Virus record (IMG/VR): IMGVR_UViG_2851971941_000002
DNA length: 39,096 nucleotides
Source of the DNA: a virus
Taxonomy: Duplodnaviria; Heunggongvirae; Uroviricota; Caudoviricetes
Strand: one strand, 5' to 3'
The translations under genes and the position numbers were made by a program. Position 1 is the first letter of the stretch, and each line of letters opens with the position of its first letter. This document shows positions 34,313 through 35,232 of the stretch, in pieces. The notes beneath the pieces were generated by a model. The model was not told the origin of the DNA and ran no database searches. It was given only the letters and a program-made list of their open reading frames with translations.

Positions 34313-35232
34313 AAATCCACCCCGTAAATCCAGTCAGTGTTTGTCAGGTCGAGTTTTGGTTTTCCGGCTGTCACGCCAGCCTGTTGTTTGTTACGGTTGA
34401 TTTCGAGTTGGGTCCACTTGTCGCGAAGTTTGGCCGGGCTCAGCACGTTACCAGACCAAAAGTTGTCCTGGCATGCCCAGCGGAACAGTACACACATGTC
34501 GCGGTGGTTACGTCCGTCACGTTCACGCATCAGGCGGATATCGTTAGCCCACCCTGCAAATTCGGTTTTCTGGCTGATGGCGCGATGGTCTTCACCATGT
34601 CAAACATCCACTCTGCGGCGATCAGGTCTTCTGCTGTCCCCCACTTGCTGCCGCTCTGAATTGCAGCATCCGGTTTCACCACAGGAAGATCGTTTTCTGG
34701 CTGGTCAGAGGATTCGTCAGAATTCTCGGACGAAAAAGGTTTTATATTGTCTTTTGTTAGTTTGTCTTTTGTGTTTACCTGATTCGGGTAAACGCCTTTA
34801 CCTGATTTGGGTAAACTTTTCTTACCTGATTCAGGTAAATTTACCTCTTTCAGGTAAACTTTATTTTTCTTACCTGATTCGGGTAATGTTGACCATTCAC
34901 TGACCACATTATTAATGCCGATATTCCGCCCGCTCTGAATAAAAATCCCACGCTTTACCAGAACGCTTTTTGCAGCAGAACACTTGTGCGGCAATATCCC
35001 GGTCAATTCGGAAAGTTGCTCGTTGCTCACCCAATCCAGTCTTTTATTAAAGCCATATGTTTTGCGCATGACAGCCAGGAAGACCAGAAACTGGTGCTGT
35101 GTTAATCCGGCCAGCATCACAGCTTCCAGCAACTCATTTGCAATGCGCGTATAACCATCGTCGAGATCTGCCACGCGCCGCTCCTTTTGTGCCACATCCG
35201 GCACTGGAAAATTGAATATCTCAGCAGTGTTT
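34309..35232 (-). pseudogene. O: replication initiator O, disrupted: 5' end truncated by IS911 and an internal -1 frameshift
   Basis: Frame A (34530-35204) reads ...VADLDDGY...SDQPENDLPVVKPDAAIQSGSKWGTAEDLIAAEWMFDMVKTIAPSARKPN then stops; frame B (34309-34530) continues (F)AGWANDIRLMRERDGRNHRDMCVLFRWACQDNFWSGNVLSPAKLRDKWTQLEINRNKQQAGV...DWIYGVDL, the lambda O C-terminus as recalled; the junction is a 3-A run at 34558-34560 (coding-strand AATTTGCAGGG where the lambda frame needs AATTTTGCAGGG); the O N-terminal frame continues without a start codon into the IS911 end at 35233. Confidence 0.85.
34775..34886. repeat. ori: replication origin iterons: five 17-bp copies of TTACCTGATTCGGGTAA-like palindromic sites within O, with an AT-rich tract at 34740-34774
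   Basis: Copies at 34775-34791, 34798-34814, 34822-34838, 34841-34857 and 34870-34886 (TTACCTGATTCGGGTAA, ..TTTGGG.., ..TTCAGG.., TTACCTCTTTCAGGTAA, TTACCTGATTCGGGTAA); the placement inside the O N-terminal coding region next to an AT-rich stretch mirrors ori-lambda architecture; the sequence differs from lambda iterons. Confidence 0.7.

Follow-up and report, generated by a model that had tools for sequence, protein, structure and literature searches.

Introduction

That the initiators of the O family each recognise iterons of their own, and that their origin specificities are exchangeable, has been a textbook principle of lambdoid phage replication since the 1970s, the exchange of specificity reportedly going back to the work on lambda-phi80 and lambda-82 hybrids of that decade. 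The O-some and the course of initiation in lambda are likewise said to have been worked out in the classical studies of Tsurimoto and Matsubara, Zahn and Blattner, and Dodson. O-family proteins differ in their origin-binding specificity and bind iterons that are located within their own genes (PMC8022706; PMC7466680). Phage P22 carries four specific repeats in its gene 18, and its partner protein gp12 is a DnaB-type helicase (PMC8022706). The Stx phages possess two extra upstream iterons, which are weakly bound yet needed for efficient replication (PMC7466680).

The locus described here lies in a 39,096-nucleotide stretch of DNA (IMG/VR record IMGVR_UViG_2851971941_000002), the whole of which is referred to as the window. 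It contains a block that is very probably an ori-lambda-type origin of a lambdoid prophage, situated inside its own initiator gene and preserved here as a fossil. The analysis documents how the locus is built and to what it is homologous, where its mosaic joints lie, how the iterons and the N-terminal domain of O co-vary, and which lesions inactivate the copy.

An iteron array at the domain boundary of O

Repeat detection, together with a reading of positions 34400-35700, revealed five 17-bp near-palindromes of the form TTACC-N7-GGTAA at 34775-34886 (Table 1), in agreement with the initial annotation, which had reported five 17-bp palindromic sites spaced 19-29 bp apart beside an AT-rich stretch. 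Measured from start to start, the spacing is 23, 24, 19 and 29 on the plus strand and 29, 19, 24 and 23 in the sense of the gene, since O lies on the minus strand, an orientation that the initial annotation had overlooked. A search with TTACCTGATTCGGGTAA, allowing up to three mismatches, returned eight strand matches, all of them within the iteron block, against 0.04 expected by chance; the expectation was taken from 100 dinucleotide-preserving shuffles, none of which reached eight, and the shuffle test thus rules out a chance or low-complexity product. The arms TTACC and GGTAA are unchanged in all five iterons, and variation is confined to the 7-bp centre. Compared with its own reverse complement, each iteron agrees at 12-16 of its 17 positions, the gene-sense form on the minus strand being TTACCCGAATCAGGTAA. 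When projected onto the intact O of 309 aa, the array occupies residues about 117-154, where the N-terminal domain passes into the C-terminal one. The earlier placement of the iterons in the O N-terminal coding region is therefore right in putting them within an O-like gene, and needs correction in that they lie at the domain boundary, outside the N-terminal domain proper.

Table 1. Features of the O-P region in the window, by position.
Feature	Position	Strand	Description
P gene	33611..34312	-	Lambda-type helicase loader, intact; start overlaps O stop as ATGA
O-type initiator pseudogene	34309..35232	-	Non-lambda N-terminal DNA-binding domain (PF04492), lambda-type C-terminal domain
1-bp deletion shifting the O frame	34558..34560	-	TTT here, TTTT in phage 4A7 and lambda-type O
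A+T-rich block, presumed unwinding element	34728..34774	-	Tandem ACAAAAGACAA motif; O-sense composition A24 C11 G3 T9
Iteron 5	34775..34791	-	TTACCCGAATCAGGTAA; aligns with lambda ITN4; abuts the A-rich block
Iteron 4	34798..34814	-	TTACCCAAATCAGGTAA; aligns with lambda ITN3
Iteron 3	34822..34838	-	TTACCTGAATCAGGTAA; 16/17 palindrome; aligns with lambda ITN2
Iteron 2	34841..34857	-	TTACCTGAAAGAGGTAA; aligns with lambda ITN1; codon phase unlike iterons 1, 3 and 4
Iteron 1	34870..34886	-	TTACCCGAATCAGGTAA; additional site, 29 nt upstream of iteron 2; no equivalent among lambda's four
Promoter-like hybrid	35215..35244	-	-35 TTGACC in the IS end; TG-extended -10 GATATT in the O remnant
IS3-family element	35233..37800 (far end approximate)	.	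End TGTAGTGG... abuts O nt 6; replaces the early region between xis and O

Repeats inside a coding sequence may also arise as a mere by-product of the protein, in this case of a repeated LPESGK-like peptide linker in O, with no role for them as DNA sites. Three of the five copies do translate as LP(E/K)SGK; the other two, however, are read in another frame (VYLKEVN and VYPNQVN) while their DNA arms remain unchanged, iterons 1-5 starting at codon offsets 0, 2, 0, 0 and 2, and the spacings 29, 19 and 23 are not divisible by 3. One DNA sequence translated in two reading frames is conserved as DNA and not as peptide, and the explanation by a peptide repeat was rejected on the strength of this frame analysis. 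The palindromic nature of the sites, their coincidence with the experimentally defined lambda iterons and the variation of the repeat sequence along with the N-terminal DNA-binding domain in eight other alleles argue against it as well, so that it retains next to no probability.

The last iteron is followed by an A+T-rich block, in which A+T reaches 77% over 34740-34774 compared with 48% across the whole window, and where a tandem ACAAAAGACAA(T/C) motif extends over 34742-34771. The ACAAAAGACAA tandem is common to the origins of P22, Klebsiella phage GZ7, the Providencia phage and the HK544/HK97 type, whatever the type of iteron (at 1639-1666, 1664-1700, 1591-1620 and 1597-1624 of the retrieved loci).

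A mosaic initiator and its relatives

The O-like gene matches the Pfam family Phage_rep_O (PF04492) with E = 2.7e-34 over the whole profile (1-95), and P matches Phage_lambda_P (PF06992) with E = 1.6e-61 and is 96.6% identical to lambda-type P. The intact O allele begins MANTAEIF... and, compared with lambda-type O in successive 30-aa bins, shows identities of 57, 53, 43, 33, 20, 67, 97, 100, 100, 90 and 100%; the N-terminal domain is ~41% identical to that of lambda O, and the C-terminal bins reach 90-100%. At the nucleotide level, similarity to the ori of phage 434 stays low through the last iteron and is high once the A-rich block begins. The O gene is thus a mosaic, joined to lambda where the iterons give way to the A-rich block. 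A search by sequence for a solved structure matching the O N-terminal domain found none.

With the first 168 aa of O as the query, tblastn returned 16 phage records with at least 95% identity and Klebsiella phages at ~80%, then a Providencia phage (PSTNGR2lys) at 57%, P22 gene 18, the closest classical N-domain, at 51%, and finally lambda, 434 and the Stx phages at ~41%. The same allele as in the window, 96.7-98.1% identical over 933 nt, is found in Escherichia phages 4A7, 4C10, 1W, 3W, Perceval and the PhiR series; these copies differ in being intact and annotated as O, and their iterons are unannotated.

For the lambda type, the annotated ori of phage 434 served as the reference, with four gpO sites at 20/24/23. 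The window shares with lambda and 434 an origin placed midway along the initiator gene, palindromic iterons at intervals of roughly two helical turns, a homologous A-rich block after them and the overlap of the O stop with the P start, and the spacing of iterons 2-5 (19/24/23) closely follows that of lambda ITN1-4 (20/24/23). It differs in the iterons themselves, which in lambda and 434 are four sites of the form TCCCTC-N4-GAGGGA as against five of TTACC-N7-GGTAA here, in the low identity of the N-domain and in that the window copy is inactivated. The Stx phages 933W, P27 and AU6Stx1 offer, with their six iterons, a precedent for extra upstream sites and have a lambda-type O C-terminus and P as well, whereas their iterons are lambda-like and their N-domain is as distant from that of the window as lambda's.

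P22 and the Providencia phage resemble the window in their half-sites TTACC/GGTAA and in an ACAAAAGACAAT tandem after the last iteron, and differ from it in having a 5-bp centre in place of 7 bp and four sites at 20/24/23. In the Providencia record a DNA helicase is annotated after O, and lambda P is present in neither phage. An origin of the P22 gene-18 type (TTTACC-N5-GGTAAA) was considered for the window and rejected, given the longer centre, the 51% identity of the N-domain and the lambda P partner. The Klebsiella phages (GZ7, KO-TP1 and others) have the same iteron type as the window, ~86% identity over ori and an N-domain 80% identical. In GZ7, the TTACC-N7-GGTAA sites show the identical 29/19/24/23 spacing and are followed by the same A-rich block, but the sequence diverges right after that block, and a DnaC/DnaI-type loader stands in place of P.

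Eight other O alleles each possess a palindromic iteron of their own at the same position, mostly with 20/24/23 spacing (Table 2). The window iterons are identical neither to those of lambda, 434, ES18 or the Stx phages, which read TCCCTC...GAGGGA, nor to those of P22, HK97/HK544, N7, PhiR12_5 or mEp237, every one of which differs, and these identities were rejected. The comparison with phages 21, 82, HK022 and phi80 that the initial annotation had proposed is covered indirectly, by way of the allele types represented in the phage collection. Across nine allele types, iteron and N-domain co-vary: the iteron is shared at N-domain identities of at least 80% and different at 57% or below. Judged by its PF04492 domain, its five iterons, the A+T block and this co-variation, the block in the window qualifies as a lambdoid O-type origin on structural grounds.

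Table 2. Iterons of the other O alleles compared.
Allele	Iteron	Sites	Spacing
Lambda, 434, ES18	ATCCCTCAAAACGAGGGA	4	20/24/23
AU6Stx1	Annotated as identical to lambda or 933W	6	
P22	TTTACCAGATCGGTAAA	4	20/24/23
Providencia PSTNGR2lys	TTTACCGAAACGGTAAA	4	20/24/23
HK544	ATTAGCCAAGTCGGCTAA	4	20/24/23
N7	TGTCTCGAAGTTAGAGACA	4	20/24/24
PhiR12_5	TGTCACCAAAACGGTGACA	4	20/24/23
mEp237 (annotated phi80-like)	TTCCCGAAAACGGGAA		21/21

The junction with lambda falls just before the A-rich block and the junction with GZ7 just after it. These joints point to an arrangement in which the N-terminal domain and the iterons form one exchangeable specificity module and the C-terminal domain with P, or more generally with the loader, forms another, the A-rich block being the hinge at which the two are joined. 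Since the mosaic joints flank the ACAAAAGACAA motif, the motif seems to serve both for unwinding and as a conserved hinge for recombination. The initial annotation had proposed an ori-lambda layout with different iterons, an O protein with a non-lambda N-terminus and a lambda-like C-terminus, and a modular exchange of origin specificity. The first is borne out by the alignment of iterons 2-5 with lambda ITN1-4 ahead of the homologous A-rich block, the second by N-domain bins of 20-57% beside those of the C-domain and the identity of P, and the third by GZ7, where the same iterons and a similar N-domain are followed by a different C-terminus and a DnaC-type loader. Its reading had been made to depend on the iterons and the N-terminus not being identical to those of lambda and on the repeats being conserved in related O genes; the iterons do differ from lambda's, and the repeats are conserved.

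Decay of the prophage

In the window, the O frame is split into an ORF of 224 aa (34530-35204) and one of 73 aa (34309-34530). Alignment with the intact O of Escherichia phage 4A7, to which the window copy is 98% identical, shows that homology starts only at O nt 6 (window 35232), the ATG and the first 5 nt being absent and replaced by the end of an IS3-family element at 35233. This end reads TGTAGTGGTCAACAAAAACTGGCC, and orfA of the element lies at 37476-37808; the element is itself interrupted by ISEc21, of the IS110 family, with a transposase gene at 35566-36642. Repressor, cro and cII are absent, the order being xis, nested IS and O. The initial annotation had not noticed this broken state of O, with its start codon and upstream control lost to the IS and a frameshift further down. 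A Rfam scan of the whole window gave no RNA family and no oop-like RNA.

A chromosome that is 100% identical, that of E. coli FDAARGOS_536, is annotated in RefSeq with O as a pseudogene ('replication protein, frameshifted'). Its gene order runs from icd through intE (frameshifted), xis, an IS3 fragment, ISEc21, another IS3 fragment, O (pseudo) and P to an inverse autotransporter, an alpha/beta hydrolase and ybcN, ninE, ybcO, rusA, ylcG and quuD. An ST131 genome, on the other hand, has bet-gam-kil-cI-cro-cII-O-P in intact form, with the same autotransporter behind it. Lambda-type late genes are still present in the window, namely those for terminase gpA, portal, protease, tape measure, J and tail fibre. 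The locus is a decayed lambdoid prophage, sited at e14/icd, from which exo-bet-gam-kil-cI-cro-cII and pR have disappeared.

Several of its other genes deserve a mention. An e14-type integrase occupies 37970-39096 (+) in two ORFs, with Arm-DNA-bind_1 followed by Phage_integrase, which fits the annotation 'intE, frameshifted'; because the integrase is split in this manner, as in that record, the prophage is probably also unable to excise. Directly after P, in the usual position of ren, lies the gene of a 1302-aa inverse autotransporter (29453-33361, -), with IAT_beta and Big_1/Invasin_D3 repeats and a near-identical internal duplication of ~100 aa. It also follows the intact O-P of the ST131 prophage (retrieved locus, 5041 onward) and is an adhesin-like moron of this prophage type. 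The second non-phage cargo gene, on the opposite strand, codes for an alpha/beta hydrolase (BD-FAE / Abhydrolase_3; 28373-29416, +) and sits between the autotransporter and the ybcN-ninE-rusA-quuD block.

As regards a functional O-P module, the window retains a lambda-type O C-domain followed by P, but neither an intact O frame nor control by pR, cro and cII. With the O start, cI-cro-cII and pR lost and 1 bp deleted in O, neither the initiator nor normal transcriptional activation is possible, and this copy of the origin is most likely a non-functional relic. A promoter-like site spans the joint between IS and O (Table 1), and an in-frame AAGGAG-N6-GTG follows downstream of it at 35186-35172 (-). 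A scan of the region for promoters and terminators yielded counts no higher than chance, and the site is only a lead; expression from the joint could give an O fragment with the full Pfam DNA-binding domain and without the P-binding end.

How this type of origin would work in an intact phage can be outlined from what is described for lambda. By analogy, we infer binding of O, unwinding and recruitment of P at this iteron type as well. In phages such as 4A7, Perceval or 1W, O would occupy the five iterons as dimers, through its N-terminal domain, and the array would be wrapped into an O-some. This would strain the adjoining A-rich block until it opens, and P-DnaB would next be brought in by the C-terminal domain of O, which is lambda-type, so that the host helicase is loaded. 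In the window copy, the IS3-family insertion has deprived O of its start codon and the prophage of cI, cro, cII and pR, and the 1-bp deletion cuts off the P-interacting end.

Distribution and fate of the origin

The initial annotation had also overlooked how common this allele is, which has already been sequenced in many phages. With coverage of at least 80% as the threshold, the 166-nt ori block occurs in 2411 of 5426 complete E. coli genomes (44%), O157:H7 and ST131 included, and in up to three places per genome. Among phages, 15 Escherichia records contain it with 98.8-100% identity and six Klebsiella phages with ~86%, and ten records of a plasmid collection have it too. The Klebsiella version of ori (~86%) is present in three Klebsiella 'plasmid' records, which at 27-42 kb are as large as phage genomes and are non-mobilizable; they may represent phage-plasmids, or phage genomes that were circularised and entered as plasmids. 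Many phage and genome entries thus already contain the allele, annotated as O, and only its iteron sequence appears to be undescribed; the exact iteron sequence gave no match in the searchable literature, and no description of it was found there.

The good preservation of the site raises the question whether a cognate phage, or a co-resident prophage, could supply O and P in trans and fire the chromosomal ori, with local over-replication and in-situ escape replication as the outcome. The iterons and the A-rich block of the window are undamaged, being 100% identical to those of the plaque-forming phage 4A7 over ~340 bp, P is intact, cognate phages are common (about 15 sequenced, beside the share of E. 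coli genomes given above), and the promoter-like site from the IS end reads across ori. Against this, pR is gone and the single promoter-like match does not rise above chance, whereas lambda origins require transcription through or near ori in cis, and O is classically a cis-preferring and unstable protein. The control of initiation by promoters is the subject of PMC3985674. Use in trans is on balance unlikely; if true, it would mean over-replication of a defective prophage together with its cargo genes.

Related copies show that decay has taken other routes elsewhere. In E. coli MCJCHV-1, and in two further matches, a 23-bp deletion fuses iterons 4 and 5 and leaves four sites, with a further frameshift; iteron number therefore changes through recombination between repeats in related copies. 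E. coli O157:H7 NE92 has, at the same icd site (retrieved locus 1797-7166), int-xis followed by the same O allele with a different 5' breakpoint, and downstream of it P, ren, emrE and a recombinase, resembling the region after P in phage 4A7. The NE92 truncation represents an independent event of decay, in which ori and P have again been kept.

The ori block is also more conserved than its surroundings: of the 2451 matching E. coli records, 1708 (70%) show at least 99% identity, a level that control pieces from the flanking N-domain coding sequence attain in no more than 130 of 2405 and 199 of 2304 records (5-9%). The comparison is confounded, as the window copy has six private substitutions in the control segments and none in the ~340 bp around ori. 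Because of these private substitutions, the contrast is not taken as evidence of selection on the relic; it fits a dual constraint of coding and binding.

It may nevertheless be asked whether the retained iterons serve as a decoy that interferes, in an origin-type-specific manner, with superinfecting phages of the same O specificity, either by titrating O or through an O fragment lacking the P-binding end. Ectopic copies of ori-lambda do block the growth of lambda in an iteron-dependent and replication-type-specific way (PMC4488673; PMC3349717), the Pfam DNA-binding domain is fully kept, with the in-frame AAGGAG-N6-GTG after the promoter-like joint, independent truncated O copies with iterons exist in an O157:H7 lineage, and the high conservation of the ori block relative to its flanks would be in keeping with such a role. 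However, the published interference was obtained with multicopy plasmids of the pBR322 type, as against a single chromosomal copy here, and one study also required oop, which is absent from the window (PMC3349717). The conservation contrast, apart from being confounded, is also explained by the dual constraint in live phages, related copies have lost iterons through the 23-bp deletion, and the promoter match is at chance level. Such interference is rated as highly improbable, more so than use in trans; if true, it would amount to a chromosomal defence derived from a dead prophage, that is, superinfection exclusion by a domesticated relic. The favoured reading remains that of a fossil origin of the ori-lambda type.

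Significance

For the window itself, recognition of the fossil origin aids the annotation of the decayed prophage at icd. Beyond it, the origin with TTACC-N7-GGTAA iterons is among the commonest lambdoid types in E. coli, and its iterons are unannotated in the records examined. The half-sites, which are those of the P22 type with a centre 2 bp longer, provide a simple test case for the divergence of initiator specificity. Overall, the locus and its relatives offer a natural illustration of how the DNA-binding domain of an initiator and its iterons move as a unit in lambdoid replication modules and can recombine with different helicase-loading partners at a conserved A-rich hinge.
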